Positions 34,974 through 59,983 of a DNA stretch of 64,000 bases are shown one piece after another. Under the pieces are notes generated by a model. The model was not told the DNA's origin, ran no database searches, and saw nothing but the letters and a program-made list of their open reading frames with translations. Source of the stretch: an uncultured Acidobacteriota bacterium (GTDB taxonomy: Bacteria > Acidobacteriota > Vicinamibacteria > Vicinamibacterales > SCN-69-37); NCBI GenBank assembly GCA_963752045.1, contig CAVVWN010000005.1, forward strand, positions 46,607 to 110,606. Direction: 5' to 3'. Within the stretch, counting starts at the first letter, position 1. Each line of letters opens with the position of its first letter. Both the position numbers and the translations under genes were made by a program.

Positions 34974-40327
<5,354 letters not shown>

Positions 40328-40467
40328 CGAGCCTCGCACTCGACTTCCCGTCCTGGCCCCTTCGACTCCACGAGAGTCGGATCCGCCGATCGGCGCGCGT
40401 GATGAATGGCCTCCTGCGACACATACAGGCCATACAATGGACGCTTCATTCGAGGAGGGTCCGCGGG

Positions 40468-41064
40468 GTGTCGACCGGTTCGGTCACAGAGATGCTCCTG
40501 GCCTGCCGACAGGGCACGCCCGGCGCATTCGATCGGCTTCTGGAACTGGTCTATCCGGAGCTGCGGCGCGTGGCCCGCGCGCAGCTCAGGCATGGTCGCC
40601 CCGACGCGCCGGTGCTCGACACGACGGCGCTCGTGCACGAGGCCTACCTGAAGCTCTGCGACCAGACACGGGTCGAAGCGCGCGACCGTGGTCACTTCAT
40701 GGCCATCGCGGCGAGAGCGATGCGACAGATCATCGTCGACCACGCGCGGGCGCGGAGCGCCAGCAAGCGTGGTGCGGGCGCGGTGCACGTGCCCCTGGGC
40801 GAGCACGACGTGGCCATCGACGCTCAGGCTGATCGCGTGCTCGCGATCGGGGACGCCCTCGAGCGTCTCGGTCAGGAAGACGCGCGCCTGCTGCAGATCG
40901 TCGAGTGCCGTTTCTTCGCGGGCTACGGAGAAGAGGAAACCGCGACGGCCCTCGGCGTGTCCTCGCGGACCGTGAGGCGTGACTGGCTTCGGGCCAAGGC
41001 CTGGCTTCGCTCGGCGCTCGACGGTCACGCCGCGCCCGGGTCGGCGCACGACGGAGCGGATTGA
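40468..41064 (+). CDS. ECF-type sigma-70 factor (PF07638/TIGR02999-like, kinase-associated type), pair 1
   Basis: GGAGG at 40454-40458 precedes GTG 40468. Motifs are VTEMLLACRQGTPGAFDRLLELVYPELRRVARAQL, ALVHEAYLKL and the region 4 HTH EETATALGVSSRTVRRDWLRAKAWL. It ends 3 nt before the kinase ATG. Confidence 0.8.
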   Translation: MSTGSVTEMLLACRQGTPGAFDRLLELVYPELRRVARAQLRHGRPDAPVLDTTALVHEAYLKLCDQTRVEARDRGHFMAIAARAMRQIIVDHARARSASKRGAGAVHVPLGEHDVAIDAQADRVLAIGDALERLGQEDARLLQIVECRFFAGYGEEETATALGVSSRTVRRDWLRAKAWLRSALDGHAAPGSAHDGAD

Positions 41065-41067
41065 CCG

Positions 41068-43782
41068 ATGCCGGGCCGTGTCGACCTCGACGTCGTGCTC
41101 CTTGACGCGGTCGAACGTCCGAAGGCCGAGCGCGCGGCCTTTGTTGCCACGCACTGCGGGGATGATCGCGAAGCCCTGGCCGAGCTCTCGCGCCTCCTCC
41201 GGGAGCTCGACGACGACGATCCCTTCGTTCGGCCCGGAGGCGCGTTCGAGGGCGCGTTCGGTGACGACCTGGCGGTCGCCCTTGCGCGAGCGGAAGGGCT
41301 CTCACTCGGCGAGCGCCTCGGGCCCTACCAGATCGTCGAAGAGATCGGGCGAGGCGGCATGGCCGTCGTCTACCTGGCCGAGCGTGCCGACGGGGACTTT
41401 GGCCGCCAGGTCGCCATCAAGGTCGTCAAGCGGGGCATCGACACCGATGAAGTGCTGACGCGCTTTCGCCAGGAGCGCCAGATTCTGGCCTCGCTCGCGC
41501 ACCCCGGCATCGCGACGCTCCTCGACGGCGGCGAGACGCCGGACGGACGGCCGTACCTGGCGATGGAGTGGGTGCCGGGTGAGCCGATCGACCGGTACGC
41601 GGATCGGCTCGGCCTCGACGTTGATGCGCGCGTCGATCTGCTGGCAGCGGTGGCTTCGGCCGTACAGCACGCGCACCGGCGTCTGGTCGTCCATCGTGAC
41701 CTCAAACCGTCCAATATCCTGGTGACCGACGAAGGCAGTGTGAAGCTGCTCGACTTCGGCATCGCGAAGCTGCTCGATCCGGAGGTCGAGTACGCCGCGC
41801 CGCCCACGGCGACCGCGTGGCGCGTGATGACACCCGACTACGCCAGTCCGGAGCAGGTGCGTCGCGAGCCGATCACGACCGCCTCCGACGTCTATCAGCT
41901 CGGGCTGGTGCTGTTCGAGTTGCTGACCGGCGCGCGCGCGCAGTCGCTCGATGGGTTGTCGCCGGCTGATGTCGAACACGTGGTGTGCGTGCAGCAGCCG
42001 CCGCGGGCGAGCGTGGCCGCCGGCCGGGAGGGCAAGTCGCGCCACTGGGTGCGACAGCTCGAAGGCGATCTCGACAAGATCGTACTGACGGCTCTACAGA
42101 AGGAACCCGAGCGGCGGTATGGGTCGGTCGATGCGCTGATCGACGACCTGCAGCGCTATCGCCGAGGGCTGCCCGTCGGGGCCCGTGGTGACTCGTTTGG
42201 CTACCTGGCGGGGAAGTTCCTGAAGCGTCATCGAACGGCGATGGCTACCGGCGCCGCCGTCGTCATTGCCGTGGCGGCCATCGTCGGCTACTACAGCGCG
42301 CGGCTGGCCTCCGAGCGCGACCGCGCGCGTACCGAAGCGGCGACAGCGACGCGCGTCGCCGACTTCGTGTCGGGCCTGTTCCGCGACGCGGACCCGAACG
42401 TCACGCCCGATCCGGACGTTACGGCTCGAGAGCTCCTCAAACGCGGTGCCGAACGCGTCGACGACGAGCTGGCGGCCGAACCCGAAGTGCAGGCCCGCTT
42501 GATGACCACCATCGGGCAGAGCTATCGGTCGATCGGGCTTCTGCCCGACGCGATCGACCTCCACGAGCGCGCGCTCGCCACTCGGCGTGAGCATCTCGGG
42601 CCGAATCATCCCGATGTGGCCGAAAGCCTGACGAATCTGGCCGGCGCGCTCTACTTCGCGGGCCGGTACGCCGATGCACGGCAGCACTTCGAAGAGGCCC
42701 TCCGCATTCAGGACTCGATACCGGACGCGCGGCCGGAGATGCTCTCGGACACGTTGAACGGTCTCGGTCTGGCCCTGCGACGGGAAGGCCGGCTGGATTT
42801 GGCCGCCGAGGCCCTCGAGCGCGCCCTGGTTCTGCGGGAACAGGCTCTCGGGGCCGACCATCCGCGGAACGCAACGATCCTCAATAACCTCGGCCTCGTC
42901 TACCTGTCGTCCAGCCGCCCCGAGCGGGCCGGCGAGCTGTTCTCGCGGGCGGCCGAGCTGCATGCCAGGGGCTTCGGACCCGACAGTCCGCTGGTGGCCG
43001 GCAGCCTGATGAATGCGGGCGACGCGCTCAGCCGGGTCGGTCGCTATGAGGAAGCGCTCGACAAGATCCGGCAGGCCGCGGCCATACAAGAACGGTCGCT
43101 TGGACCTCAGCACCGCGACACCGCGACGACGTTCAATACGATGGCCTCCGTCCTCTGGGACATGGACCGCTACGACGAGTCGATCGCGCTCTACGAGCGG
43201 GCCGAAGAGGCCTACCGGGTATCGCTCGGGCCGGACCATCCCTATGTGGCCTATCCGGTGCAGAACATCGGCGGCATCCATGAGGAGACCGGCGACTACA
43301 CGCGCGCGCTGGCGCAGTACGAGCGCGCGCTGGCCATTCGCACCGCGGCCTTTGGCGCGGTGCATCGCGACGTCGCGCAGACGCTCGAGAAGATCGGCAC
43401 CCTGCGCGTCCTGATGGCTGACTGCGCATCGGCCGTGCCGGTGCTCGAGCGAGCGATCGCGATGACGCAGGAGACCACCAAGCCGCTGGCGACCGGCTGG
43501 ATCGCCACCTCGAAGTCTGGCCTTGGTGCCTGCGCTGCAGAGGGCGGGCGGTTCGAGGAGGCCGAGGGGCTGCTGCTCGACGCGCACGGCATCCAACTCG
43601 AGCTTGATGCCGACGATCCGGATACCCGCCTGACTGCCACGCGTCTCGCCGGGCTCTACGAGAGATGGGGCAAACCGGCCGAGGCCGCCAAGTACAGAGA
43701 ACCCAGAGTTACGTCGGCCCCGGGGGCGCGGTCTGAACCAGGCCTTCGTCCTGCGGGTGCTCGAGAAGGCCTGCGTCGCTGA
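41068..43782 (+). CDS. Ser/Thr protein kinase - TM - TPR sensor protein, pair 1
   Basis: Kinase motifs are GRGGMAVVY, VAIKVV, HRDLKPSNILV, DFGIAK and TPDYASPEQ. One TM is AMATGAAVVIAVAAIVGYY. It is followed by about 10 TPR-like units of the LGPxHPxVA type. Confidence 0.9.
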   Translation: MPGRVDLDVVLLDAVERPKAERAAFVATHCGDDREALAELSRLLRELDDDDPFVRPGGAFEGAFGDDLAVALARAEGLSLGERLGPYQIVEEIGRGGMAVVYLAERADGDFGRQVAIKVVKRGIDTDEVLTRFRQERQILASLAHPGIATLLDGGETPDGRPYLAMEWVPGEPIDRYADRLGLDVDARVDLLAAVASAVQHAHRRLVVHRDLKPSNILVTDEGSVKLLDFGIAKLLDPEVEYAAPPTATAWRVMTPDYASPEQVRREPITTASDVYQLGLVLFELLTGARAQSLDGLSPADVEHVVCVQQPPRASVAAGREGKSRHWVRQLEGDLDKIVLTALQKEPERRYGSVDALIDDLQRYRRGLPVGARGDSFGYLAGKFLKRHRTAMATGAAVVIAVAAIVGYYSARLASERDRARTEAATATRVADFVSGLFRDADPNVTPDPDVTARELLKRGAERVDDELAAEPEVQARLMTTIGQSYRSIGLLPDAIDLHERALATRREHLGPNHPDVAESLTNLAGALYFAGRYADARQHFEEALRIQDSIPDARPEMLSDTLNGLGLALRREGRLDLAAEALERALVLREQALGADHPRNATILNNLGLVYLSSSRPERAGELFSRAAELHARGFGPDSPLVAGSLMNAGDALSRVGRYEEALDKIRQAAAIQERSLGPQHRDTATTFNTMASVLWDMDRYDESIALYERAEEAYRVSLGPDHPYVAYPVQNIGGIHEETGDYTRALAQYERALAIRTAAFGAVHRDVAQTLEKIGTLRVLMADCASAVPVLERAIAMTQETTKPLATGWIATSKSGLGACAAEGGRFEEAEGLLLDAHGIQLELDADDPDTRLTATRLAGLYERWGKPAEAAKYREPRVTSAPGARSEPGLRPAGAREGLRR

Positions 43783-47977: not shown

Positions 47978-49381
47978 TCAGTCCGAGGCGCCGCCGCTCC
48001 GGTCCAGGATCTGCAGGATGCCGTCGGTCTTCATGAGTGCCTCGATGTCGGCCACCGTCCGCGGGACGCCGATCGACAGCACTTCGTGCCCGCTCTCGGT
48101 GATGGCGACGGTATCCTCGATGCGAATGCCGATTTCCTCGTCACGCCGGAACAGCTGGATGTCGCAGGCGAACACGAAGCCCGGCTGCAGCACCTCATCC
48201 GCGCCGGCGAACGTGCCCATCACATCATGGGTCGCCAGTCCGATGGAGTGGTTGTAGCCGCCCAGGCGCACGATGCCGGCGAAGTCCTGCGCGAAGCGGT
48301 CGAACCCCCGTGCCTTGATGAGGGCGTCCACCCTCTGGCCGACCTGCCCGAGCGTCACGCCGGGGCGGTAGCTCTCGATTGCCACATCGTGTACCGCGAG
48401 GGCCGCCTCGTACAGTTCCTTCTGTCTGGGCGAAAACGTCCCGGACGCCGGAAACGTCGTGGAGATGTCCACGTGGTAGTTCTCGTAGTCCGGGGCGGCG
48501 TCGAGAATGATGAAGTCGCCGTCGTTGAGCACCCGATCGTACTGGTGATAGTGCCCGTACGCGTGGTTCTTGCCCGACATGATGATCGTGTAATACGCCA
48601 GCCCCCGCGCACCGGCTCGGGCCGACACGAAGTCGAACACCGCCGCCAGTGCCTTTTCCGACACGCCTGGCCGCGTCGACTGGATGAGCGCCTTGTGCGC
48701 CTGGACGCCGAGCTGGGCCACCCGGCGCATGATGTCGATCTCCGCCTGGGATTTGAACTTGCGGAGGTTCCAGACGATTGGGGAACTGTCGCGAACCTCG
48801 ACCTGCGGAAAACGCTCGCGCAGCTGTTTCACGAACTGGAGCTCACGCGTGAGCCGGCCGTCCCACATGTTGAGCGTCATCGACTGCTGCAGCGCGTTGA
48901 ACTTCTCGTTGCTGTTCTCGGGCCCGATTTCCTCAGGCTTGAACATGGTGAACAGGGGCTGGTTGCGCCGGGCGATGCCGGCCAGGAAGCTGCTGAACTG
49001 CTCGGCCGGCAGCGCGCGCTCGATGCCCGTATATGCCACCGGATTCCGGATGAGGTCGAGCGGAATCGCCTGGCCGTCTGCCGTGGTTTCGGTCATGGTG
49101 AAGAACAGCACGCTCTCCTTGCGCATGCCGTCCACCACGAGAACGGCGTCCGGCATCTCGACGCCGCTCATGTAGAAGAAGTCATGGCCCTGCCGGAATG
49201 CCACGTCGCTTGACGGCGTCTGCGCGCCGAGAAAGACGGCCGTGCCGTCCCCAATCGCCGCCATCAGCCGGGCGCGCCGGGCCGCGTACTCTTCCTTGTT
49301 GAACAGGTCGGCGGTGCGCGCGGGGGCCGCCACAAGCGCGACTCCCGCCGCCAGCGCCACCAGCCACAGGCGTCCTCTCAT
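47978..49381 (-). CDS. Secreted M24-family Xaa-Pro aminopeptidase
   Basis: From M109 of ORF 47978..49705: signal peptide MRGRLWLVALAAGVALVAAPA, creatinase-like N-domain, and pita-bread residues (ILDAAPDYENYHVDISTTF, HSIGLATHD, IRIEDTV). Its ATG overlaps the M1 peptidase stop (ATGA). Confidence 0.8.
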   Translation of the reverse strand: MRGRLWLVALAAGVALVAAPARTADLFNKEEYAARRARLMAAIGDGTAVFLGAQTPSSDVAFRQGHDFFYMSGVEMPDAVLVVDGMRKESVLFFTMTETTADGQAIPLDLIRNPVAYTGIERALPAEQFSSFLAGIARRNQPLFTMFKPEEIGPENSNEKFNALQQSMTLNMWDGRLTRELQFVKQLRERFPQVEVRDSSPIVWNLRKFKSQAEIDIMRRVAQLGVQAHKALIQSTRPGVSEKALAAVFDFVSARAGARGLAYYTIIMSGKNHAYGHYHQYDRVLNDGDFIILDAAPDYENYHVDISTTFPASGTFSPRQKELYEAALAVHDVAIESYRPGVTLGQVGQRVDALIKARGFDRFAQDFAGIVRLGGYNHSIGLATHDVMGTFAGADEVLQPGFVFACDIQLFRRDEEIGIRIEDTVAITESGHEVLSIGVPRTVADIEALMKTDGILQILDRSGGASD

Positions 49382-51079
49382 CGCATGCCTCCTGTCGATG
49401 CCGGGTGACCGGCCGTGCGGGTGACGGTCCAGGTGGCGAGCAGGCGGGTCCCGGGATCGATGATCATCTCGACCACGTCCTTGCCTGCCGGCAGGTCGGA
49501 CCGGGCTTGTGCACGCATCGCGTCCCCGCCCGCCAGCGTGACTGTTGTCACATCGCTCGTGCTGCCGTCCGCGAACCTGAACGCCACGTCCACCTCCAGC
49601 TCGAACCGGTACGTCGGCTGGGTCTGGGTCAGATCCAGGTGCACGGTCCTTCCCTGGACCGACCATGAGGCGTCGACGTGTGGCATGCCGCCCTGGAACA
49701 GCCACTGCGTGAAGAAGCCCCCGAGCGACTGGCCGGAGGCCTCCTCGAGGTGCCGGACGAAGTCGGGAGTCCGCGCGTTCCGGTCCTTGTACTCGGCGTA
49801 GTACGACCTGACACCCGCGTTGAACGCCTCGGCGCCGATCTTCTCGCGCAACATGTGGAGGGTCCAGGCGCCCTTCTGGTACATCATCGGCCCGGAGACG
49901 TTGTTGACGTCTTCGACGAGCGGCCGGACAATCTGGAAATCGTAGTCCTTCTTGTAGAAGTCCACGACCCGGTTGCGGGCGTCCTTCAGGCCCGCGACGA
50001 AATCGTCATGCCCGTAGGCATGTTCCCGGTACAGCAGCGTGTAGTAGGTGGCGAATCCTTCACTGAGCCATACGTCGTTCCAGTCCGATTCGGTGACCGC
50101 GTTGCCGAACCACTGGTGGGCGATCTCATGGACGATCACGTGCTGCCAGCGCCTGGACCGATCGCCCGTGACCGAGGTCTCCGAATAGGCGATCGCCGAC
50201 GCGGCCTCCATGCCGCCGCTCGTGGCGGTGGAGACGATGTTCGCCAGCTTCTCGTACCAGGTACGGCCCGATGAGGTTCGAGTAATAGTCCAGGACCTTC
50301 CAGGTGGGTTCCGCGAAGTCGTGGAAACCGGCATCGCGGTCCTGGCGGGGCACCCAGGTCTGGATGGACTTGCCGTCGAATTCGCCGACGTACTGCACGG
50401 CGAAGTCCGCCACGCCCAGCATGAAGAGCCAGGGAGCGATCGGCACCGAGTTCTTCCAGTGTGACAGGGTCGTGCCATCACCCTGGCTGGTCTCTTCCAC
50501 CAGCACGCCGTTCGACACCACCAGGTAGTGGGCGGGCGCAATCACGATCATCTCGCTGGTAGCCTTGTCCGAGGGATGGTCCACCGCCGGCAGCCAGTTC
50601 CGGACCCGTGACGACCAGTTGTCGCTGAAGAAGGCGCGGTCACCGTGCCTGTTGGGGCCAACCTTCAGACCTGCGGCCGGAATCCCGCTGTAGGTCACGG
50701 TGACCCTCACCCGTTCGAATGCCTGGCTCACGCGCCCCAGGTCGATGAACACCTGATCGCGCTCGTGCCGAAACGCCAGCGGCCGGCCATCCATCGTCAC
50801 GCCGTGCACCGTCATGCCCTTGCCGCCCAGCGCCTCGGACTGTTTGATCAGGTCCAGCCGCAACTCGCGCTGCCCGGCGGTCACGAACCGAGCGTCGATG
50901 GTCGCGGCGCCGGAAATACTGTCGGACTGATCCGACAGTCTCAGCTCGAACGCGTAATTGAGGATGTCAATCCCGGCGTTCTTCGGATAACTGTCCCGAT
51001 AGTTTCCCGGGACCGACTGGGCCGACGCCACCTGCGCCAGCAGGAGCGTGATGACGATCGCAAGACACCTGCGCAGCAT
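49378..51079 (-). CDS. Secreted M1-family aminopeptidase (aminopeptidase N-like), one frameshift as sequenced near 50260
   Basis: The N-part is in ORF 50126..51439, from MLRRCLAIVITLLLAQVASAQ to ..VLDYYSNLIGPY. The C-part is in ORF 49378..50541: YEKLANIV...GGMEAASAIAY...HEIAHQWFGNAVTESDWNDVWLSEGFATYY (GxMEN-like + HEXXH-X18-E). Confidence 0.85.
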
Positions 51080-51154
51080 GGTGACCACTATACGGCCTGC
51101 CGAGGCCGGCCGGAACCGGGTGCGGCAGGCAAACCACGACCCTTGACGCCGATC

Positions 51155-51585
51155 GGGCCTCACCTGACGCGGATACGGGACAACCTCGCCGATTCGCCGG
51201 CACACGCGGCGGTGTTCGGGCGGATGCGCGAAGCCCTCGACGCTCACCAGCGGGAGACTCGCGACGTCGGCTTGCTGCCGGAGTACGCGCTGCATCAAGG
51301 ACCGGCACCGACGCCCTACGGTTTGCGCACGGACCGTCGCGCCTACGACTTCGAGCGCGTCTTCGCGATGGCAGCCTCGTGGCTGACGCCAATCCCGTCG
51401 AGCGAGGTGAGTTCGTTGCGCTGCTGGCGGCCTACTCACTCAACCAGGTGCCGAACCTGCCGGGCGACATCCGGGCCGAGGTGCACGCGCTGCCGGCGAC
51501 ACCACCCGACGATGGACGCAGGCTCCGCAGTCGAGAGGACTACCTGCCGCGCTTGAAGGCGGCCATTCAGCAGGACGTGCGCTGA
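51155..51585 (+). pseudogene. 3' remnant of a sulfatase-like gene (5' part missing, one frame break near 51375)
   Basis: LTRIRDNLADSPAHAAVFGRMREALDAHQRETRDVGLLPE resembles the C-terminal ..NLA.dP.....l..L...L..w....D.. tail of arylsulfatases. It continues in another frame (ADANPVERGEFVALLAAYSL...). There is no N-terminal catalytic part. The assignment is weak. Confidence 0.4.
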
Positions 51586-51644
51586 CCGTTGGTCCGGCTA
51601 CCGGACGATCTCCGACGACCAGTTCGTCATGACGTGGATCCGCT

Positions 51645-51798
51645 GCGCATTCGAACACGTCGACCGGCGGCTCGACGGTGCGGTACCCGACCCGCACTTG
51701 CGCGTACCTCAATAGGGGTGGGTACGCACACCTGCCCGGTTTCTCAGGGGTGAGCCATGAAACTCGGATCGTTCGTCGTGGGGACCTGCATCGCCGCG
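51645..51798 (+). repeat. Copy 2 of the ~110-bp direct repeat (functional 5' region and first codons of the M23 peptidase gene), with a ~49-nt insert carrying a small hairpin
   Basis: See copy 1. The extra segment at about 51690-51738 contains GCGTACC...GGTACGC. Confidence 0.8.
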
Positions 51799-52470
51799 TC
51801 GGCCTTCGGTGGCGCCTGCGCCGGCGGCCTGACCGCGCCCGACGGGACCGGAGCCGTCACCACGCAGCCACAGACGCAGGCTGCGTGTCTGGAGGGCGCA
51901 ACCTTCGTCGCACCGGCTGAATCTCCGTACGTCCTGCCCTGGGCTGCGGGGCAGAGCTTCGTGGTGGGACAGGGCTACTGCACGCCGCCGCCGCGGAGCC
52001 ACCACTTGCGCTACGCCTACGACTTTCTGATGCCCGTCGGTACCGAGATTCGCAACGTACGAGCCGGCCTGGTCGTCGAGCTGCGCGAGCACTTCGCCGA
52101 CGACGATCGGGTCGGCGGACACGAGAACATGGTGTCGTTGCGTCACGGCGACGGGACGATCTCGATCTACATGCACCTGCGACACGAGGGCGTGGCGGTG
52201 GAGATGGGCCAGCAGGTTCCACAAGGTGCTCTTCTCGGGTGGTCGGGCGCGACGGGCGACCCCGCCGGGATTCCACACCTGCATTTCCAGGTGTGCCTGC
52301 GAAGCGGCATGTGCTCCTACACGACGCAGGAGATCACGCTGCCGGTCACTTTCAGCAACGCGCAGGGGCCATCCGGGCCCACCGGCGGGCTGATCGAAGG
52401 GGAGCGCTATGCCGCCGATCGCGGTGTCGAGCCGGGCTGCACGTCAATCGTGGACTGCGGGAACGGGTGA
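51757..52470 (+). CDS. M23-family (LytM/lysostaphin-like) metallopeptidase lipoprotein
   Basis: MKLGSFVVGTCIAASAFGGACAGG carries the lipobox. The M23 motifs are HHLRYAYDF (HxxxD) and GIPHLHFQV (HxH). Confidence 0.75.
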   Translation: MKLGSFVVGTCIAASAFGGACAGGLTAPDGTGAVTTQPQTQAACLEGATFVAPAESPYVLPWAAGQSFVVGQGYCTPPPRSHHLRYAYDFLMPVGTEIRNVRAGLVVELREHFADDDRVGGHENMVSLRHGDGTISIYMHLRHEGVAVEMGQQVPQGALLGWSGATGDPAGIPHLHFQVCLRSGMCSYTTQEITLPVTFSNAQGPSGPTGGLIEGERYAADRGVEPGCTSIVDCGNG

Positions 52471-52473
52471 CCG

Positions 52474-53124
52474 ATGTCGGCCGCCGCCGCTCACTGTGCC
52501 AGAATGGCCGCTGACAGGAAGGCGTTCGTGCCAGCCGATCCCACCGGTCGCCTCACCGGGATCGTGGCGGCCTTCGAGGCCGATGCCACACGAGCCGGCG
52601 TCCCCGCCGACGAGCTGTTCCCGATCGTCTACGAGGAACTGCGACGGCTGGCCGGCGCGTTCATGGCGCGCGAGGCGGCCGGACACACGCTGCAACCCAC
52701 CGCCCTCGTCCACGAGGCCTACCTCAAGCTCGCCCGAGAGACCCGCGCGCGTTTTTCCGGCCGAGCCCATTTTCTTGCCGTAGGCGCCCAGGTGATGCGC
52801 CGGTTGCTCATCGATCACGCCCGACGCCGAGGGTCGGTCAAGCGCGGTCTCGGCTGGCAGCGCGTGACCCTGGGCCGCGCGGGCGATCCGCTCATGCCCG
52901 AAGCCATGGGGCCGGAGGAGCTGCTCGGCCTCGACGCGGCGCTCGAGCGGCTGGCCCGGCTCGACGAGCGTCAAGCCCGCATCGTCACCCTCCGGTTCTT
53001 CGGCGGACTCACGACGGCGGAAACGGCCGAGGCCGTGGGCGTCTCGACGCGCACGGTCGAGGCCGACTGGCGACACGCGCGCGCCTGGCTGCGCGTGGAG
53101 CTGTCGGGGAGCGCGGCGCCGTGA
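52474..53124 (+). CDS. ECF-type sigma-70 factor (PF07638/TIGR02999-like, kinase-associated type), pair 2
   Basis: ELFPIVYEELRRLAGAFMAREAAGHTLQPTALVHEAYLKL and the region 4 HTH TAETAEAVGVSTRTVEADWRHARAWL. It starts 3 nt after the M23 stop. Its stop overlaps the kinase GTG (GTGA at 53121-53124). Confidence 0.8.
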   Translation: MSAAAAHCARMAADRKAFVPADPTGRLTGIVAAFEADATRAGVPADELFPIVYEELRRLAGAFMAREAAGHTLQPTALVHEAYLKLARETRARFSGRAHFLAVGAQVMRRLLIDHARRRGSVKRGLGWQRVTLGRAGDPLMPEAMGPEELLGLDAALERLARLDERQARIVTLRFFGGLTTAETAEAVGVSTRTVEADWRHARAWLRVELSGSAAP

Positions 53125-56100
53125 GTCGCAACCGCCACGCCCGAGTGAAGGCGCTGTTCCTCGCCGCGTGCGAGCGACCGGCGAGCGAGCGTCACGCCTT
53201 CCTCGACGAGGCGTGCGCCGGCGACCTCGACCTGCGCCGCGCGGTCGACCAGCTCGTCGAAGCTGACGAGGCGGTCGGACCGCACCGTGACGACGAACCG
53301 GACGCCATTGCGGGATACCGCCTCGTACGCAAGGTCGGCGAAGGCGGGATGGGGGAGGTCTGGGAGGCCGAGCAGCTCGAGCCCGTCCGCCGGCGCGTCG
53401 CCGTGAAGTTCCTGCGGTACGGCCTGGCCACGCGGGAGGCTGCCTTGCGGTTCGAATCCGAACGCCAGGCGATGGCGCGCATGGACCATCCCTGCATCGC
53501 CCGGGTGTTCGATGCCGGCACCACCCGGAGCGGCCGCCCGTACTTCGCCATGGAATTCGTCGAGGGCGAGCCCATCGACGCCTACTGCGCTGGACGCGAG
53601 CTCGACGTCCGAGACCGGCTGTGGCTCTTTGCGCAGGTGTGCGACGGCGTGCAGCACGCTCACGTCAAGGGAGTCATACACCGCGACCTGAAACCCTCGA
53701 ACGTCCTCGTCACGCGGCTGGCGGACCGCGCCGTTCCGAAGATCATCGACTTCGGAGTGGCAAAGGCCCTCGACGAGCGCCTCACCGACGGCACGCTGCT
53801 CACCGCGCACGGGCAATGGCTCGGCACGCCCGAGTACATGAGTCCGGAGCAGGCCGGGCTGTCGGCCTTCGACGTGGATGCCCGGACTGACGTGTACTCG
53901 CTCGGGTGCATTCTCTATGAGTTGCTCTGCGGAGCGCCGCCGTACGACAGCCGCGTGCTGCGCGCCGCCGGCTTGGACGAAATGCGGCGGATGATCCGCG
54001 AAGAGGACCCACCTGCGCCGAGTGCCCGCGTCGGTGCGCGCGGCGACGTTCGGAGCACGGTTGCCGTGGGTCGGCGAACCGACAGTCGCACGCTTCGGAA
54101 GCAGCTCCGCGGTGACCTGGACTGGATCGCCATGACAGCGCTCGAGAAGGACCGGCGGCGACGCTACGGGTCACCCGCGGAGCTGGCAGCCGACATCCGC
54201 CGACACCTCCGGTACGAACCCGTCACGGCCGGCTCGCCGGGCCATGCCTACCGAATCGGCAAGTTCTGCCGCCGTCACCGGACCGGCGTCGTCGCCTCCG
54301 CCGTCGTGTTCCTCGCGCTCGTCGGCGGTCTGGCGGTTGCCTCGATGGGACTCGTGCAGGCGCGGGCATCCGAGCGGCTCGCCAGCCGGCAGGTCGATCT
54401 GCTCGTGGCCATGCTGAACGGGTTCGACAGCGGCGGACCCGCGTCGGCCGCAGCCAGCCCGCGCGGCCAGCTCGACGCGATGTCCGAGCGCATCGACCGG
54501 GAGCTCGTCGACCAGCCCGTGGTTCGAGCGCGGCTCAAGACGACGCTCGGGCGCGTGCGGACGAACCTCGGTCACTTCCCGGAAGCGCAGGCGCTGCTTC
54601 AGGAAGCGCTGGTACTGCGCGAAACGCATCTGGGGCCGAACGCGCCCGAGACGGCCGAGACGCTCACGGCCCTGGGCATCCTCGCCAACGAACTGGGAGA
54701 GTACCGGGCCTGCGAGCGCTACTTCAGTCGCGCACTCGAGATCGACGAGCGCGCGTTCGGCCCTGAGCATCCCGTCACGGCCACGAGCCTCACCTACCTC
54801 GCGTACGCCCGATGGCGTCTCGGGGAATTCGAGGCCGCGGCCGCAGGCTTCGATCGGTCGCTGGCGATCCGGGAGCGCACGCTCGGTCGCGACCACGAGG
54901 CCGTGGCCGAGACGCTGTATCTGCAGGCCGTGCTTCTGGCCGACACGGGGAAGCTCGAACCGGCCGCAGCCGGGGCGAGGCGATCGCTCGACATCCGCGA
55001 GCGAAGCCTGGGGCCGGACGGCCTCGCGACCGGCTGGTCGGCCAGCCTGCTCGGCACGATCCTGCTGGATCTCGACTCCCCGGCCGCGGCCATCCCCGTG
55101 CTCGAACGGGCGCTGTCGATCGTCGAGCGGCGCCAGGGACCGGATCACGTCGGCGTAGCCGAACCGCTCATCAGCCTGGGATGGGCGCTTCTTCGTGAAG
55201 AGGACGTCGCGGTCGCCGAAGCGCGTTTCGCCCGCGCGCTGGACGTGATTGGTCGCACGGTTGGCGACGCGCATCCCCGTGCGGCCGACGCGCTCGATGG
55301 GCTCGGGCATCTCGCGCTCACAGACGGCGATCATCGGCTCGCGCGCCGGTACTTCGAGAGGAGCCTGACGATTCGCGAGCGCGCGCTGGGCGCAGCGCAT
55401 CCGCATGTGGCGAGGAGCCTGCTCGGGCTGAGCGATGCCGCCTCGGCCGAAGGCGATGCCGAAGAGGCGGCCGCGTTGCGTGAGCGGCGCGCAGCCATTC
55501 TCGGACAGAGCCGTTCGTCCGAGGCGCGACAGGTCGAGGTTGACTACGTCGTGCGGATTGTCCTGGCCGACCAGGGTCTGGTCCGCGTTCGTGCCGAGGT
55601 CTCTCGAGAGGCGGCGGGTGAGAACCGTACTCTGGAAATGCGCTTTCGAGACGTGCGCCGGGTGCCGGGTGCCGTGCGGACGTTTCGCGCCGCAGCCGAC
55701 GGGCGTGCGCTGGAGGTTCAGCAGCAGGCCGAACGTGAGGATGACGTCCGCACGATCGTGCTCGATGAATCTTCCGGCGCGGTGAGGCTCGAATACACGC
55801 TGGACCCGACCTTCTTCCCGCCGGGATCGGGCTCGACCGACCCGGCAGACGCCCGGGCGCGCGTCGGCGAAGACTTCGCCGTCCTGAGGACGTCGCGTCT
55901 TCTGCCGGCGTTCGACGGCCATGCGTTTGCGGCCAGGGTCACGTTCGACCTGCCGGATGGCTGGATCGCGGCGACGCCATGGGTCCCGGATGGCGATGGC
56001 TTCCGGCTGTCGTCCGACGACCATGCCGCGGTCGATTACGTGGGGCTCGGACCGTTCGCGATCCGCGACGTCGTTACCGGAAACACTGCTTTCCGAGTCG

Positions 56101-56843
56101 CAGTTCCTCACGACATGGCGGGGTGGGGCGCGGCGGAAGCCGCGGCCATCGTCCGCTATTACCTGGCGCTTGCCGGCAACTCCCAGTGGCTCGCGAGCGG
56201 GCCGCGTTCGATGATCGTCGTGCCCGCCGGATTCATGCGCGGGGGAGCAGCCGGGCGTCGATCGATCGTCCAGGGACCGTCTCCGATCACGCTTGCCCAC
56301 GAGGTCTTTCACTGGTGGATGCACGCCGATCTGGTTCGTCCCGAGGCCGCGTGGTTCAGCGAGGGTGTCACCAACTACTACGGCATCAAGGCGGCACGAC
56401 AGGCGTCGTTGATCGCCGAGAGCGACCTGCGCGCCTGTCTCGCCGATCTTGCGGCGGAGATGACGTTCCTCGAGTCGGACGGGCCGCGAAGTCTGGCAAG
56501 CGCATCACTGGACTACGCGCGAAACAGCCGGGCCCGGCGGCTCGTCTACGCCAAAGGCACGCTCTTGGCCCTTCTCCTGGACCGGGAGCTGGCCGGGCAG
56601 GGTCACACGCTGGACGACACGATGGCCGCCATCCTGTCGGAGGATCGCCGCGGACTGACCAACGCGGACCTGCGCGCGCTCTTCGCACGGGAGTCCGGAC
56701 CCCGCGCAACCGCGCTTTTCGACGCTCACGTCACGGGTGGCGGCGCGCTGCCGGATCTCGGTCTGGAATCGGGCACCGGTAGCAGCGGCTGCGCGCGATA
56801 CGACGGCGCCGATCCGGGCAGCCGGCCGTCATACCGGCACTGA
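53121..56843 (+). CDS. Ser/Thr protein kinase - TM - TPR array - M1/M61-like gluzincin peptidase domain (1240 aa)
   Basis: The kinase spans about 53316-54215 (GEGGMGEVW, VAVKFL, HRDLKPSNVLV, DFGVAK, GTPEYMSPEQ). The TM helix GVVASAVVFLALVGGLAVASMGLV lies at 54285-54356. TPR-like LGPxHP units follow. From about 55530 comes a beta-rich segment, then HEVFHWW at 56298, with WFSEGVTNYY placing a Glu 17 residues after the second His. Confidence 0.85.
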   Translation: MSRNRHARVKALFLAACERPASERHAFLDEACAGDLDLRRAVDQLVEADEAVGPHRDDEPDAIAGYRLVRKVGEGGMGEVWEAEQLEPVRRRVAVKFLRYGLATREAALRFESERQAMARMDHPCIARVFDAGTTRSGRPYFAMEFVEGEPIDAYCAGRELDVRDRLWLFAQVCDGVQHAHVKGVIHRDLKPSNVLVTRLADRAVPKIIDFGVAKALDERLTDGTLLTAHGQWLGTPEYMSPEQAGLSAFDVDARTDVYSLGCILYELLCGAPPYDSRVLRAAGLDEMRRMIREEDPPAPSARVGARGDVRSTVAVGRRTDSRTLRKQLRGDLDWIAMTALEKDRRRRYGSPAELAADIRRHLRYEPVTAGSPGHAYRIGKFCRRHRTGVVASAVVFLALVGGLAVASMGLVQARASERLASRQVDLLVAMLNGFDSGGPASAAASPRGQLDAMSERIDRELVDQPVVRARLKTTLGRVRTNLGHFPEAQALLQEALVLRETHLGPNAPETAETLTALGILANELGEYRACERYFSRALEIDERAFGPEHPVTATSLTYLAYARWRLGEFEAAAAGFDRSLAIRERTLGRDHEAVAETLYLQAVLLADTGKLEPAAAGARRSLDIRERSLGPDGLATGWSASLLGTILLDLDSPAAAIPVLERALSIVERRQGPDHVGVAEPLISLGWALLREEDVAVAEARFARALDVIGRTVGDAHPRAADALDGLGHLALTDGDHRLARRYFERSLTIRERALGAAHPHVARSLLGLSDAASAEGDAEEAAALRERRAAILGQSRSSEARQVEVDYVVRIVLADQGLVRVRAEVSREAAGENRTLEMRFRDVRRVPGAVRTFRAAADGRALEVQQQAEREDDVRTIVLDESSGAVRLEYTLDPTFFPPGSGSTDPADARARVGEDFAVLRTSRLLPAFDGHAFAARVTFDLPDGWIAATPWVPDGDGFRLSSDDHAAVDYVGLGPFAIRDVVTGNTAFRVAVPHDMAGWGAAEAAAIVRYYLALAGNSQWLASGPRSMIVVPAGFMRGGAAGRRSIVQGPSPITLAHEVFHWWMHADLVRPEAAWFSEGVTNYYGIKAARQASLIAESDLRACLADLAAEMTFLESDGPRSLASASLDYARNSRARRLVYAKGTLLALLLDRELAGQGHTLDDTMAAILSEDRRGLTNADLRALFARESGPRATALFDAHVTGGGALPDLGLESGTGSSGCARYDGADPGSRPSYRH

Positions 56844-56977
56844 TGCCCGCTCTCCGAGGCCGGACCTGACGGGTTTCACACCTCGAATCCGCAGCGGCGC
56901 ATCAGCGCGCCGAGCCGCGAGAGGGACCCGCACGTCGGCCGGCGTACCCGGGGACCGGCCGACCGCGCTGGATCGGA

Positions 56978-58520
56978 CTACCGCACGACCTCGAAATCGC
57001 CGGGCTTCCAGGTCTTGTCGAACCAGGGCTCGAGCGGACCGTACAGCCGCAGCAGGACGTTGTAGCTCTTGCCCGGCATGGTCTGGATCCAGTTGCCCTC
57101 GTGGCCCGCGGGGGCCTCCGGTCCGAACCACATCGGTGAAGGAGCCGTCGCTGTTGGGCTGTACCGACGGGTTGTTGCTGTCGAGGCCGGCCAGCTTCTG
57201 GTCGGTTTCCAGCATGGATCGGTGCTGCCCCGAGTAGACCATGAACGACCAGAAGTTGTTCACGGGTACCGGGCCGGGCAGCGTGACCGAGTAGGTCTTG
57301 CCTCCATCGAGGTAGTTGCCCTCCGCGTCCTGCGCAGCGAACCCATAGACCGAGCCAGTGCCCACCTGTGGCGCGGCCATGGCCGGCGTGATGCCCGTCG
57401 CGAGGTAATGGAAGAAGATGCGGTCGTCGAGCACACGCTCGCCGTCGTCGAGGAACTCGTGGCTCCCGCCGGCGAAGGGCGACGACCACTTGCGGTCGGG
57501 ATAGATGTACACGCTCTCTTTGCGTGGCGAAAACGTGAGCGCGCGGGCCGTGGCATTACCAACCGCGACCGCTTCGGTCAGGATCGTCCGCATCCGGGCG
57601 TCGGGACTGAAGGGCTGGCCCTTCTTGATGCCGATCGCCGCGAACAACCCGACGAGCTCCGGATCGAACGCGTCGGCGGGCTCGTGCTGAATCACGGCGT
57701 TGAGCTCCTCGAAGAACTCGAAGTTGTTCGCATGGATGGTGTTGAACTGCTTGCCCGACAGATTGACGAACCGTTGCTCAGGCGGACTCGCCGCCTGCGC
57801 CAGCGGATACATGCGGAACCCCGCCTTGAGCGCGCCGACGGTTCGGGCGAAGTCGCCATCGGCGACGAAGGCGCGAAAGAACATCAGATTGCGATAGGTC
57901 GGCGTGCGCGCGACGAAATACCCCTCGGGGATCGGGCCGTCGTAGTCCCGGTGCACGAAAAGGTACTTCCCGCCCTGGCCCTTGTCAGGACCGGTCACGC
58001 CGATATCGACCACCCAGCGGAAATAGGCGTCGTCGACGGGCCCAAGCACGCCCGGCGGGACCTCGGCGACGACCGGCCCGTCTCTGACGTCGACTTCCGT
58101 CATGTTGTAGATCGTGGTCGAGTTTGCCGTCAGGAAGAGCGAGCGGGCATCCATCAGGTCCTCGAAGATGCCGAGGTCGCCCGGCTCGAGGCCGGCTTTC
58201 TTGAGGCCTTCGAGCCCCGCGTAGACGGATGCCGCGGGTATGCCATTGAGGAAGGCCTCCGCGCCCCGCGAGAAGTCGAGGAAGTCGTAGACCTTCTCCA
58301 CGGTGGCCTGGCTGGGCATGCCGTCGAAGAACTCGAGGTCGCCCAGCCGTTCGGTGGACACACGGTCAGGCGTCGTGACGGATTCCGGCACGACGGCCGC
58401 GAACGTCGGTTGGCCCGTCGGTACACGCGTTTCACTCCCGCAGGCCGACAGCGCGGTCACTGCCAGAACGGCCACGCCGAGCCGGCGCGGAATACCGCCC
58501 AATATCACCAGGTTCTTCAC
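56978..58520 (-). CDS. DUF1254/DUF1214-family lipoprotein, one frameshift as sequenced near 57134
   Basis: AAAGGAGAG precedes GTG 58520, which opens VKNLVILGGIPRRLGVAVLAVTALSACG. The body shows the typical pattern (YFRWVVDIG, GGKYLF, FWSFMVYS). After ..NSDGSFT the sequence continues one frame over as MWFGPEAPAGHEGNWIQTMPGKSYNVLLRLYGPLEPWFDKTWKPGDFEVVR, ending at stop 56980-56978. Confidence 0.6.
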
Positions 58521-58686
58521 GTTCTCTCCTTTTGGAATCCCGCACACGCGACTCGCAGGCGAGTAGGAGGCAACCCGAGTCACGCCCGGTCGCCTCTCGA
58601 GGCTTCGACAGGTATCAGCTTACCGCTTACTGCCTGCTGAGCGGGCGGCGACGGGTGGAACGCCCCTCAGGGCGCTCTTCTACGAC

Positions 58687-59249: not shown

Positions 59250-59657
59250 TTATCGTCCCGGCTGCACCACGACGAGGCCGGCCTCGCTCGCGGCTCGTGC
59301 CAGCCGGTCGTCGTAGGTGATGAACGCCTCGGGGTCGTCGCCGATCGATAGCGCCGTTGCCAGGTGCAGCGCGTCCAGCGTTCTCAGACCTGTCGGCTCG
59401 GTCGTGTTCGCGAGCCGAAGGACCGGCTCGTCCAATCGTATGAGCGTCGCGGCGGCCAGCACGGCTTCGGCGCGCCGGTGAACGCTCTCGGGGGCCGCCA
59501 CGCGGCGGAGCGCGCGCCGGCACTCCACGCCGGCGAGCACGCTCGACACGCGATCCGGCCACGCCTGGAGCGCCCGGAACAGATCGTCGCTTTCGCGTTC
59601 CGGCAGGACGAGCTTCATGAGCGCCGACGAATCGAGGTAGACGGGGCGGTAGCTCAT
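59250..59657 (-). CDS. PIN-domain toxin (VapC-like)
   Basis: VYLDSSALMKLVL (first acidic residue), LAGVECRRAL, RTLDALHLATAL and FITYDDRLARAA give the PIN acidic quartet pattern. It overlaps the antitoxin gene by 4 nt. Confidence 0.7.
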   Translation of the reverse strand: MSYRPVYLDSSALMKLVLPERESDDLFRALQAWPDRVSSVLAGVECRRALRRVAAPESVHRRAEAVLAAATLIRLDEPVLRLANTTEPTGLRTLDALHLATALSIGDDPEAFITYDDRLARAASEAGLVVVQPGR

Positions 59658-59983
59658 ACGGCGTCGCCTCGGCTGTCGTCGAGGGCCTGCTGCACCCGAC
59701 TGGCCAGGTCGGCGGGAATGTCCGCGGGCAGCGCGGGGAGGTCTCGCAGGTCTCGCGTGGCGGCCACGGCGCGGCCCGACGCAACGAGGCGCTCGGCGAG
59801 GGTGGCGGATTCGGAGAGCGGCGCGAGAATCGCCACCGGCCTGCCGCGGTCCGTCACGCGCAGCGTCTCACCTTTGACCACGCGGGCCAGATACACGCTG
59901 AAGTACTGACGCAATTCGCGCACGCCGACATGGTCGGAGGGCGGGCCTTTCCGCTTGCTCGGTCGAGCAGTCATGTAGCACAT
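59654..59983 (-). CDS. Phd/YefM-type antitoxin
   Basis: VGVRELRQYFSVYLARVVKGETLRVTDRGRPVAILAPL is the typical Phd/YefM N-terminal domain. The start may be MTARPS at 59974. Confidence 0.65.
   Translation of the reverse strand: MCYMTARPSKRKGPPSDHVGVRELRQYFSVYLARVVKGETLRVTDRGRPVAILAPLSESATLAERLVASGRAVAATRDLRDLPALPADIPADLASRVQQALDDSRGDAV

Follow-up and report, generated by a model that had tools for sequence, protein, structure and literature searches.

Locus architecture

We analyzed a 64,000-nucleotide stretch of a metagenomic contig from an uncultured Acidobacteriota bacterium (hereafter the window; positions refer to the window and features lie on the forward strand unless stated otherwise). 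Three genes follow one another at the locus studied here. An ORF at 51757–52470 encodes an M23 metallopeptidase of 237 aa (PF01551, E = 3.8e-16), and an ECF sigma factor gene occupies 52474–53124 (216 aa as the longest ORF, with the true start possibly at a downstream Met or Val; PF07638, E = 2e-52). The third gene, at 53121–56843, is a fusion ORF of 1240 aa in which a Hanks kinase, a transmembrane (TM) helix, a TPR array and an M61-like peptidase are joined. The M23 stop codon (TGA, 52468–52470) is separated from the sigma ATG at 52474 by 3 nt, and the sigma TGA and the kinase GTG share 4 nt (GTGA, 53121–53124). An initial annotation of this DNA had described the three genes as tightly coupled, and both the coupling and the junction coordinates were confirmed base by base.

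A scan of the M23-sigma-kinase operon for sigma-70 promoters found none, terminator-like matches there were at chance level only, and an Rfam scan of the 47–60 kb part of the window gave no matches. A second, ordinary ECF and kinase-TPR pair lies at 40300–43782; it shares the sigma-kinase overlap and the kinase/TM/TPR plan of the studied pair and lacks a peptidase. The window also contains the M1 peptidase gene that had been called bona fide in the initial annotation; the gene is present, but a frameshift near 50.2 kb splits it. Because the contig belongs to a metagenome-assembled genome (MAG) and both genes flanking the fusion locus, M1 peptidase and DUF1254/DUF1214, are frameshifted, the sequence quality is imperfect.

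The M23 protein begins with a hydrophobic segment that is a probable signal peptide, scores 59.5 bits against the Peptidase_M23 cutoff of 28.7, and has a legible HxH motif (PHLHFQV). None of the named NCBIfam M23 equivalogs, including MepM and ShyA, reached its cutoff. The C-terminal part of the M23 gene is also found upstream of the sigma gene in locus L001, which carries the closest relative of the kinase. At the loci of kinase relatives with ~70% identity, a divergent OMP beta-barrel gene replaces M23, and no ECF or kinase gene lay beside M23 relatives elsewhere, at 10 metagenomic M23 loci. The M23-sigma adjacency was found only in the window lineage and its closest relative, which is without the fusion. 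A place for M23 as a conserved operon member is therefore unsupported by the 10 metagenomic loci and the ~70% kinase relatives, and we suggest that M23 is a co-transcribed neighbor that would have been gained earlier in the lineage and does not define the module.

The sigma factor and kinase resemble ECF43-type signaling pairs

The sigma factor consists of sigma2 and sigma4 only and is of the group-4 type, with a Sigma70_r4_2 match in addition to PF07638 and a TIGR02999 score of 198 bits (cutoff 126). Where the acidic DAED/DxxD would stand in sigma2.2, the protein has LQPTALVHEAY (52690–52722) with the uncharged, Thr-containing QPTA, and Thr76, encoded at 52699–52701, is the predicted phospho-acceptor. 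Thr76 is invariant across seven aligned sigma factors of the group. The corresponding consensus in ECF43-type sigma factors is QTTA (PMC13147305), the motif in EcfP is STTA (PMC8999054), and the EcfK counterpart is QATE (PMC13147305, PMC8999054). The QPTA motif in sigma2.2 supports the earlier assignment of the protein as an ECF43-type, kinase-linked sigma factor (PMC13147305, PMC8999054). No anti-sigma gene lies beside the sigma gene, and a domain scan of the M23 and kinase neighbors gave no anti-sigma match; the same sigma-kinase arrangement recurs in five relatives. Based on the Pfam and TIGRFAM matches and the sigma2.2 motif, rather than on ECF group HMMs, we suggest that the protein is a sigma factor of the kinase-linked, phospho-activated ECF43-like kind. 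Further kinase-linked ECF groups are ECF59-62, 217, 267 and 283 (PMC7826278).

The kinase catalytic domain (53316–53981; PF00069, E = 6e-39; Pfam envelope aa 66–287) has all of the catalytic motifs attributed to it initially: GEGGMGEV, VAVK (aa 93–96), HRDLKPSN (187–194), DFG (210–212) and SPE. The single TM helix that had been placed at 54285–54356 (aa ~389–412) proved to be the sole 19-aa segment of the protein with KD > 1.6, with a peak of 2.44. Its N-terminal flank has five K/R residues and a net charge of +5, the C-terminal flank has a net charge of +1, and these charges favor an N-in/C-out orientation with the kinase in the cytoplasm. A topology check drawing on the single TM helix, the flank charges and the exported stand-alone homologs likewise predicts that the C-terminal region is extracytoplasmic, as first proposed. 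The TPR array that follows (aa ~468–795; 54522–55505; TPR_12 E = 3e-55, TPR_10 E = 6e-34), predicted to be periplasmic, is made of TPR_10/TPR_12-type units. The LGPxHP-type array of the initial annotation is thus real, but it has seven units at a spacing of exactly 42 aa and not about ten.

Two characterized systems offer a comparison, EcfP-PknT of Vibrio parahaemolyticus and EcfK-PknS of Xanthomonas citri, in which an ECF gene likewise lies beside that of a bitopic Ser/Thr kinase, an anti-sigma is absent, and the sigma2.2 motif is uncharged and includes a conserved Thr (QPTA in the window pair). The TPR region of PknS, an ECF43-linked kinase, is periplasmic (PMC13147305) and has three TPRs, whereas the window kinase has seven 42-aa units. 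Unlike either known kinase, the window kinase ends in an M61-like peptidase and has an M23 gene upstream. Judging from the family, the window kinase would be a bitopic Hanks-type kinase with a cytoplasmic catalytic domain and a periplasmic TPR array; upon activation it would phosphorylate Thr76 of the translationally coupled ECF sigma, and the phosphate would supply the negative charge for binding core RNA polymerase, switching the regulon on. Experimental work on EcfP/PknT and EcfK/PknS supports this sigma mechanism (PMC13147305, PMC8999054).

The C-terminal domain is an M61-type gluzincin

Residues 806–1227 of the fusion (55536–56801) form an M61-like gluzincin domain with an N-terminal beta-sandwich and a thermolysin-like catalytic domain. 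PF05299 (Peptidase_M61) passed its gathering score of 22 by a small margin (24.9 bits with the isolated domain, 22.5 with the full-length protein), while Peptidase_M61_N (PF17899; 15.1 bits against 23) and Peptidase_M1 (PF01433; 11.3 bits against 27.7, E = 0.26) fell short, and the GXMEN motif is absent. The AF2 model of the domain has a pLDDT of 92.8 and a pTM of 0.91. Its top PDB matches in Foldseek were 7xyo, 4fgm and 8j9c, all M61 structures (E 4e-22 to 8e-20, TM 0.62–0.67), on which the N-domain fold still superposes, and M1 enzymes ranked after them (TM ~0.45). The zinc-binding and catalytic motif HEVFH (aa 1060–1064: H1060, E1061, H1064; 56298–56312) is invariant in 47 sequences. Glu1081 in WFSEG (56361–56363), 17 residues past the second His, is the predicted third zinc ligand; it is invariant (E281 in domain numbering) and lines up with WF.EG in 7xyo and 4fgm in a profile-to-PDB alignment. 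The initial annotation had read HEXXH...E as a gluzincin signature with likenesses to both M1 and M61, and the Pfam score, the AF2 fold and the invariant H/E/H/E in 47 aligned members bear out this reading and place it in the M61 type. A coincidental HEXXH is ruled out by the family invariance, the Pfam score and the fold match. Based on these comparisons and the structural model, we conclude that the C-terminal domain is a genuine M61-type gluzincin.

The fusion domain shares with the M61 structures the beta-sandwich, the thermolysin-like domain, HEXXH and a Glu ~17 residues further on in WF.EG.T.Y, but it is only 15–20% identical to them, has no PDZ match in a domain scan (PDZ is not universal in M61) and carries GGAAG in place of GGLEH. 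In a profile-to-PDB alignment with 4fgm, GGAAG (56241–56255) is the counterpart of M61 GGLEH and M1 GXMEN minus the Glu. The motif runs throughout the stand-alone subfamily as well as the fusion domain, with G241, G242 and G245 invariant and A243 and A244 at least 90% conserved. In M1 enzymes, the Glu of the GXMEN-type motif binds the free N-terminus of the substrate. Since the fused domain lacks this anchoring Glu, aminopeptidase-like trimming is doubtful and the enzyme is probably an endo- or oligopeptidase rather than a classical aminopeptidase; MfuP of Myxococcus fulvus is reported as an M61 endopeptidase (review, PMC10885120). The fusion domain keeps 74 of the 75 family-conserved positions with no rate acceleration; with these positions and the catalytic residues retained, it has most likely stayed active as a periplasmic metallopeptidase.

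The relatives of the domain that were found (P0001–P0071) are all stand-alone "hypothetical proteins" of ~450 aa from Gemmatimonadota, Acidobacteriota, Rhodothermales, Chloroflexota and others, with 40–62% identity across the whole domain. HEXXH...E, GGAAG, a Cys pair and a C-terminal GxSGCAR are common to these proteins and the fusion domain. An N-terminal signal peptide or anchor, lipobox-like and anchor sequences among them, was present in 41/44 stand-alone homologs, which are separate genes; in contrast, the fusion domain has no signal peptide, lipobox or signal anchor of its own. When the neighbors of the stand-alone peptidase were examined as a clue to its substrate, synteny was found to be sub-lineage-specific only. 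An ECF, kinase or M23 gene was near the stand-alone peptidase at 0/25 loci, and a Rosetta-stone link between the peptidase and ECF/kinase pairs was rejected on this count. The longer, distant M61-like proteins that were scanned contain no kinase domains, and their additional domains are PDZ (in P0255, P0284 and P0321), Big, AhpC/TSA, FlgD_ig and TSP3.

An identical protein in the database, P0074, is the sole member of its cluster and comes from one 371-kb contig of one MAG. When collections derived from ~15 billion proteins were searched, no second kinase-peptidase fusion emerged, which agrees with the initial view that the architecture was undescribed. A literature search on kinase-metallopeptidase sensor fusions yielded nothing relevant; outside its scope lay Iyer et al. 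2020, who reportedly surveyed the ectodomains of ECF43-linked kinases.

The peptidase was inserted into an existing kinase gene

The closest relative of the kinase, P0075 of L001, is a complete protein of 803 aa with 80% identity in which the peptidase is absent. It is collinear with the fusion kinase, its stop falls three residues past the last aligned residue, and its locus has the same 4-nt sigma/kinase overlap. More distant relatives (P0076–P0084; ~915 aa, ~70% identity) share the overlap and the kinase/TM/TPR plan and also lack the peptidase; they have a ~110-aa C-terminal TPR cap that is absent from the window/L001 lineage. Nucleotide homology to L001 (81%) stops at 55501 and restarts at 56876, and the segment inserted relative to L001 (55502–56875) codes for a short linker followed by the M61-like peptidase in its mature form, stop codon included. 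On the reverse strand at 56876–56919, starting 33 nt past the fusion stop, lies a 44-nt remnant of the 3′ end, with the stop codon, of the gene that in L001 is located after the kinase and convergent with it. This remnant is 79.5% identical to L001 3209–3252 (E ~ 1e-6), is the best match in the window, was equaled in score by 0/200 shuffles, and constitutes the right-hand syntenic flank. The kinase and peptidase homologies lie just 24 nt apart, no signal-peptide coding sequence occurs at this junction in any frame, and codon usage is continuous over it. Because the P0075 stop coincides with the peptidase boundary and the 44-nt remnant lies downstream, we conclude that the fusion is a ~1.35-kb in-situ insertion and not an assembly chimera.

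The sequence comparison shows that a ~1.35-kb segment entered in frame, in one lineage, ~ten codons before the original kinase stop. The insert encodes an M61-like zinc peptidase of a kind that normally stands alone and is exported or membrane-anchored; it comprises the mature part and its own stop, and the peptidase would in effect have traded its N-terminal membrane anchor for a receptor kinase. An origin by read-through or frameshift was rejected given the 24 nt between the homology blocks and the absence of a signal-peptide remnant. Fusion of formerly adjacent genes was likewise rejected, as the gene after the kinase varies among four relatives and is never the peptidase.

We also considered whether the 1240-aa ORF is an artefact of long-read metagenome assembly, produced by a chimeric join, by collapse or mis-polishing of the region, or by an indel error. 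The fusion is known from one contig in one MAG with both flanking genes frameshifted, and related MAGs show contig names in the Flye style and tblastn matches that come out split, which suggests indel errors. However, an indel cannot make an ORF of this kind when a 24-nt gap separates the homologies and signal-peptide sequence occurs in no frame. A chimera would not lead back to the original locus, but here the ancestral downstream gene recurs with its 3′ end; this right flank and the continuous codon usage make chimeric assembly unlikely. In addition, 3.7 kb remain open in sequence of 69% GC, and overall we judge an artefact highly improbable.

Possible functions of the fused peptidase

The explanation that we favor, with middling confidence, is an ordinary ECF43-type signaling pair that underwent a real, lineage-specific gene fusion in which the peptidase is tethered and sensing is secondary. 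The enzyme would keep its own job while attached to the receptor; if substrate binding influences the kinase at all, that would be a secondary effect. Judged from one sequence, the fusion is most likely recent and close to neutral, although the in-frame join at exact domain boundaries and the fully conserved peptidase would fit equally well with selection for a working sensor-enzyme chimera. Because the fusion was found in only one MAG, we regard it as a real curiosity, a known sigma/kinase module in a form peculiar to one lineage, rather than as a new conserved signaling system. The initial annotation had proposed a coherent module of M23, sigma factor and kinase-peptidase; this proposal is unsupported, given the singleton status of the fusion, the M23-sigma-kinase set without a peptidase in L001, the OMP barrel in place of M23 in the ~70% relatives, and the 0/25 peptidase loci near ECF, kinase or M23 genes.

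It is possible, though in our judgment somewhat unlikely, that the peptidase is itself the sensor, so that binding or cleavage of periplasmic peptides (e.g. envelope- or peptidoglycan-derived, possibly produced by M23) would reshape or oligomerize the TPR-peptidase ectodomain and lead through the kinase to sigma phosphorylation. The peptidase shares its side of the membrane with the TPR sensor, is fused in frame and precisely at domain boundaries, and has an intact active site; M23 is co-oriented at a 3-nt gap with a probable signal peptide; and receptor Ser/Thr kinases as a rule have ectodomains that bind ligands and favor dimerization (PMC13147305). Against this, the fusion occurs once, neither the peptidase family (0/25 loci) nor M23 relatives (0/10) occur near ECF/kinase modules, L001 carries M23-sigma-kinase minus the peptidase, and the catalytic residues are retained at an unchanged evolutionary rate. 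Enzyme-derived domains that truly act as sensors have often lost catalytic residues. A sensor role of the peptidase is thus possible but unsupported, and the idea that M23 releases peptides that the tethered peptidase senses is pure conjecture. Doubtful, too, is a receptor Ser/Thr kinase whose input domain is a membrane-distal zinc peptidase with catalytic activity, in which peptide occupancy or turnover, on substrates possibly made by M23, would be converted to ECF sigma phosphorylation; if true, such a "protease-receptor kinase" would be new to bacterial Hanks kinases and ECF signaling. A further alternative is that the insertion disabled the receptor, or is disabling it, because the ~110-aa C-terminal TPR cap had already been lost in the window/L001 lineage, and that the gene is heading toward a pseudogene like its two frameshifted neighbors. 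The second ECF and kinase-TPR pair in the window points to redundancy. Yet the 1240 codons, the kinase motifs and the conserved peptidase positions are all intact, and long-read indel errors explain the neighboring frameshifts at least as well, which leaves decay improbable.

The PASTA receptor kinases (PknB/StkP/PrkC) offer a further comparison. These are also bitopic Hanks kinases with an ectodomain borrowed from envelope enzymes, and PASTA ectodomains bind envelope-derived ligands (cf. PMC13147305). PASTA, however, is a conserved, widespread, non-catalytic sensor, whereas the window module is a complete enzyme with one occurrence and putative signaling. Its main value at present is as a well-documented case, in a single occurrence, of domain accretion at a receptor C-terminus prone to remodeling. 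If functional, the fusion would be a natural experiment in which an ECF43-type sigma/kinase switch was rewired with an enzymatic ectodomain. A ready-made control is available, as the L001 receptor is the same receptor minus the peptidase, and contrasting the two could help to show how ectodomains control kinase-TPR receptors of the acidobacterial type, which are very abundant but poorly understood. The fusion also draws attention to a widespread exported M61-like subfamily with GGAAG for GGLEH, a conserved Cys pair and a C-terminal GxSGCAR.

Architecture of the operon and its receptor kinase

Three open reading frames on the + strand of the window encode an M23 peptidase (51757-52470), an ECF sigma factor (52474-53124) and a kinase fusion protein of 1240 aa (53121-56843), with coordinates identical to those of the initial annotation. 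The junctions are also as described there, with the M23 TGA at 52468-52470 followed by the sigma ATG at 52474, and with the sigma TGA and kinase GTG overlapping in the GTGA at 53121-53124. Profile searches matched the first protein to Peptidase_M23 (E=4e-16) and the second to Sigma70_ECF (PF07638, E=2e-52) and TIGR02999. A divergent intergenic region of ~650 nt (51110-51756) lies between the likely start of an M1 gene (MLRRCLAIV..., ~51109) and the M23 start; it gave neither an Rfam match nor a sigma-70-like promoter match and might contain the operon's ECF-dependent promoter.

The full set of kinase catalytic motifs was located in the 1240-aa protein, and a profile search found Pkinase (aa 66-287), a TPR_10/TPR_12 array and Peptidase_M61. 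About ten LGPxHP-type units had been estimated for the array; we count seven, spaced by exactly 42 residues. One segment is strongly hydrophobic (aa ~389-412; no other 19-residue window exceeds KD 1.6), and it is flanked by five K/R on the N-side versus a net charge of +1 on the C-side. This single segment and its flanking charges would place the kinase domain inside and everything past aa 412, including the peptidase part, outside the cytoplasm, in agreement with the topology first proposed.

Judged by every feature examined (Pfam and TIGRFAM matches, gene adjacency and the sigma2.2 motif), the locus belongs with the known ECF43-like sigma/kinase pairs. ECF43 sigma factors have the acidic DAED/DxxD motif swapped for an uncharged Thr motif (QTTA consensus, STTA in EcfP, QATE in EcfK), and phosphorylation of the motif Thr by the neighboring Hanks kinase leads to core RNA polymerase binding, as shown for EcfP/PknT and EcfK/PknS; the TPR region of PknS is periplasmic (PMC13147305, PMC8999054, PMC7826278). 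Compared with these pairs, the window sigma factor has its Thr in an uncharged QPTA motif (sigma2.2, LQPTALVHEAY), and this Thr76 is invariant in seven sigma factors of the group. From the motif and these precedents we infer that an ECF43-type phospho-switch operates here too, in which the Hanks kinase would phosphorylate Thr76 of the adjoining sigma factor and thereby promote its binding to core RNA polymerase. A second, ordinary pair of an ECF sigma factor (PF07638, sigma2.2 LDTTALVHEAY) and a 904-aa kinase-TPR protein, without a peptidase, is found at 40300-43782 (+), and the ECF/kinase module is thus multi-copy in this genome.

The C-terminal domain is an M61-type gluzincin

Searched on their own, the last 440 aa scored 24.9 bits against Peptidase_M61, which is marginal and above the gathering score of 22, and the M61_N (E=0.023) and M1 (E=0.26) profiles were sub-threshold. 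Homologues of the domain numbered 73 in a word-indexed search across 5.8 billion protein clusters; phmmer, run exhaustively against 1.84 billion representatives, gave 526 matches at E<=1e-3, including 37 at E<=1e-30. Close relatives are all ~440-475 aa long and mostly annotated as hypothetical, and in neither search did any of them carry a kinase. All 47 aligned members share, without exception, the His-Glu-His of HEXXH and the Glu 17 residues further on. From this alignment AlphaFold2 gave a model of very high confidence (pLDDT 92.8, pTM 0.91), and its best PDB matches are the M61 structures 7xyo, 4fgm and 8j9c (E 4e-22 to 8e-20, TM 0.62-0.67), followed by M1 aminopeptidases (TM ~0.45). Given the invariant motif, the model and the fold matches, we conclude that HEXXH is not coincidental and that the domain, initially described as M1/M61-like, is an M61-type gluzincin.

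The fused peptidase is missing the PDZ domain that is a feature of M61. The conserved GGAAG of the peptidase family aligns with GGLEH of 4fgm. GGLEH is the counterpart of the M1 motif GXMEN, in which the Glu holds the free amino terminus of the substrate. Since GGAAG lacks this Glu, classical aminopeptidase activity of the fused domain seems doubtful. MfuP of Myxococcus fulvus, an M61 member, has been reported as an endopeptidase (PMC10885120), and 7xyo, the top fold match, derives from the same organism. Within the M61 fold group, the fused domain falls in an uncharacterised subfamily that departs from M61 in the GGLEH Glu and in its M61_N score.

With conserved columns set without the sequence under test, the fused domain retains 74 of 75 conserved positions (stand-alone median 97%). 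The fused domain is on average no more distant from 39 outgroup members (0.594) than the free-standing relatives closest to it are (0.597-0.625). By these measures the domain seems to be an intact enzyme rather than a degenerate pseudo-enzyme, as would be expected if purifying selection has continued or if the fusion is very recent.

Just two cysteines occur in the peptidase domain, Cys1106 (56436-56438) and Cys1224 (56790-56792), each conserved in at least 90% of the family, and one of them sits within the C-terminal motif LPDLGLGxxxGxSGCAR. A disulfide between tail and catalytic domain is plausible and would suit a periplasmic location. Many Acidobacteriota-type stand-alone peptidases (among P0018-P0060) have a conserved N-terminal signal-anchor and, directly after it, WRxxHPPxPGPLP, where no cleavage site is obvious. 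Others in the same set show L(A/S)GC sequences resembling a lipobox; there seem to be two different ways in which the family is attached to the membrane.

Origin of the fusion

The database copy of the window protein (P0074) is a singleton cluster on one 371-kb contig and the sole protein covering the full query. No other instance of the kinase-TM-TPR-M61 architecture was found in the sequence collections searched, nor did a search of full-text literature, with the ectodomain survey of Iyer et al. 2020 outside its scope, return anything relevant; the architecture appears to be unreported.

The closest kinase relative, P0075, is 80% identical to the window kinase; its gene on locus L001 is complete, encodes 803 aa and ends in a stop codon of its own. 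Collinearity of the two proteins extends from residue 1 to at most 3 residues before the P0075 stop, where P0075 ends in ...RREAILSRAPQAGLD* and the window protein reads ...RRAAILGQSRSSEARQVEVDYVVRIV.... In stand-alone peptidases, the conserved V.Y.VRI start comes after a signal peptide, lipobox or signal anchor that takes up 30-50 residues. In the window only eight codons lie between this start and the end of kinase homology, so that neither a lost stop codon nor an indel can account for the reading frame.

At the DNA level, L001 is 81% identical to the window from 52336 to 55501. Homology resumes at 56876-56919 (79.5% over 44 nt, E~1e-6), the best match anywhere in the window, with a score reached by 0 of 200 shuffled queries; this block corresponds to the 3′ end and stop codon of a gene that in L001 runs convergent to the kinase, starting 11 nt downstream of it. 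Because L001 homology is found on both flanks, the peptidase-coding DNA at 55502-56875 is, as judged from synteny, an insertion of ~1.35 kb. Kinase relatives of ~70% identity have an additional 110-aa C-terminal TPR cap that is absent from the window/L001 lineage, indicating that the receptor C-terminus has been remodelled repeatedly.

The highest identity to the catalytic half of the fused domain (66% over 43% of the query) is that of P0065, a 415-aa protein on a 4.2-kb JGI metagenome contig. Its M61-like C-terminus (...GHSGCARYLPGS) continues directly into a class B metallo-beta-lactamase domain (PF00753), and it may be a further C-terminal fusion of this family or a gene-calling artefact.

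Genomic context and interpretation

The initial annotation proposed that the M23 peptidase, the sigma factor and the kinase-tethered peptidase form one peptide-sensing module. At none of 24 loci from GTDB representative genomes, nor at the closest metagenomic locus, does a gene for an ECF sigma factor, a kinase or an M23 peptidase lie within 6 kb of the stand-alone peptidase; neighbors were conserved within sub-lineages only. Longer, distant M61-like proteins carry PDZ, Big, AhpC/TSA, FlgD-Ig or TSP3 modules, and none of those scanned has a kinase module. Among the window, L001 and the loci of the ~70% relatives (L002, L004, L005 and L006), M23 stands immediately upstream of the sigma gene in just the first two, and since L001 has M23, sigma and kinase without the peptidase, M23 adjacency is not tied to the fusion. 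No ECF or kinase gene was present at the ten metagenomic loci that carry M23 relatives, two of which have 72-74% identity. The survey does not support the proposed module, and no pre-existing functional link of the peptidase with ECF, kinase or M23 genes was found in the loci examined.

The four ~70% loci have just the sigma-kinase pair in common with the window, with variable downstream genes. In place of the window's M23, a divergent gene for a 214-aa OMP beta-barrel is conserved upstream of their ECF sigma (L002 6554-7198, L004 6553-7197, L005 2522-3166, L006 5261-5905, all -) and is the stronger candidate for conserved membership of this sigma family's regulon.

We favor, with about even confidence, the reading that the domain is an active periplasmic metallopeptidase that would have traded its own N-terminal anchor for a receptor kinase in a recent, near-neutral event. 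A true sensor role, as initially hypothesized, is possible and less probable: the domain looks intact and is predicted to lie outside the cytoplasm, set against a fusion that is a singleton and a peptidase family found apart from these genes. The fusion is a single occurrence, and the comparisons made gave no sign of selection or of a functional link.

That the gene is decaying is unlikely; both flanking genes are frameshifted, and the domain itself keeps nearly all conserved positions. The same frameshifts show that contig quality is imperfect, and an artefact is similarly unlikely: a chimeric assembly join would not give both flanks syntenic to L001, and codon usage is continuous over the junction (RSCU correlation 0.84, inside the range between other window genes).

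Neighboring genes

The M1 aminopeptidase used for comparison in the initial annotation is present upstream (49378-51439, -; Peptidase_M1_N and Peptidase_M1) with its HEIAHQWFGN, but a frameshift near 50200-50230, after ...LIGPY and before WYEKLANIV..., breaks it into two overlapping ORFs, and it is either a pseudogene or a long-read assembly indel error. A frameshift near 57090 also affects the DUF1254/DUF1214 gene (56978-58583, -); the true C-terminus, ...WFDKTWKPGDFEVVR*, lies in a different frame with the stop at 56978-56980, versus 56829 for the mechanical ORF. At L021, L022 and L024 (long-read MFD Acidobacteriota MAGs), tblastn matches to stand-alone peptidases are split or shortened, suggesting frameshift errors there too, which bears on the trust placed in single-contig ORF structures from MFD long-read MAGs.

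Four metallopeptidase families occur within 9 kb (47978-56843): an M24 Xaa-Pro aminopeptidase (47978-49330, -), M1 (-), M23 (+) and the M61-like domain (+). Two small ORFs of 135 aa and 109 aa with a 4-nt overlap (59250-59983, -) look like a putative toxin-antitoxin pair, in which a small antitoxin-like protein is followed by a PIN-like one.
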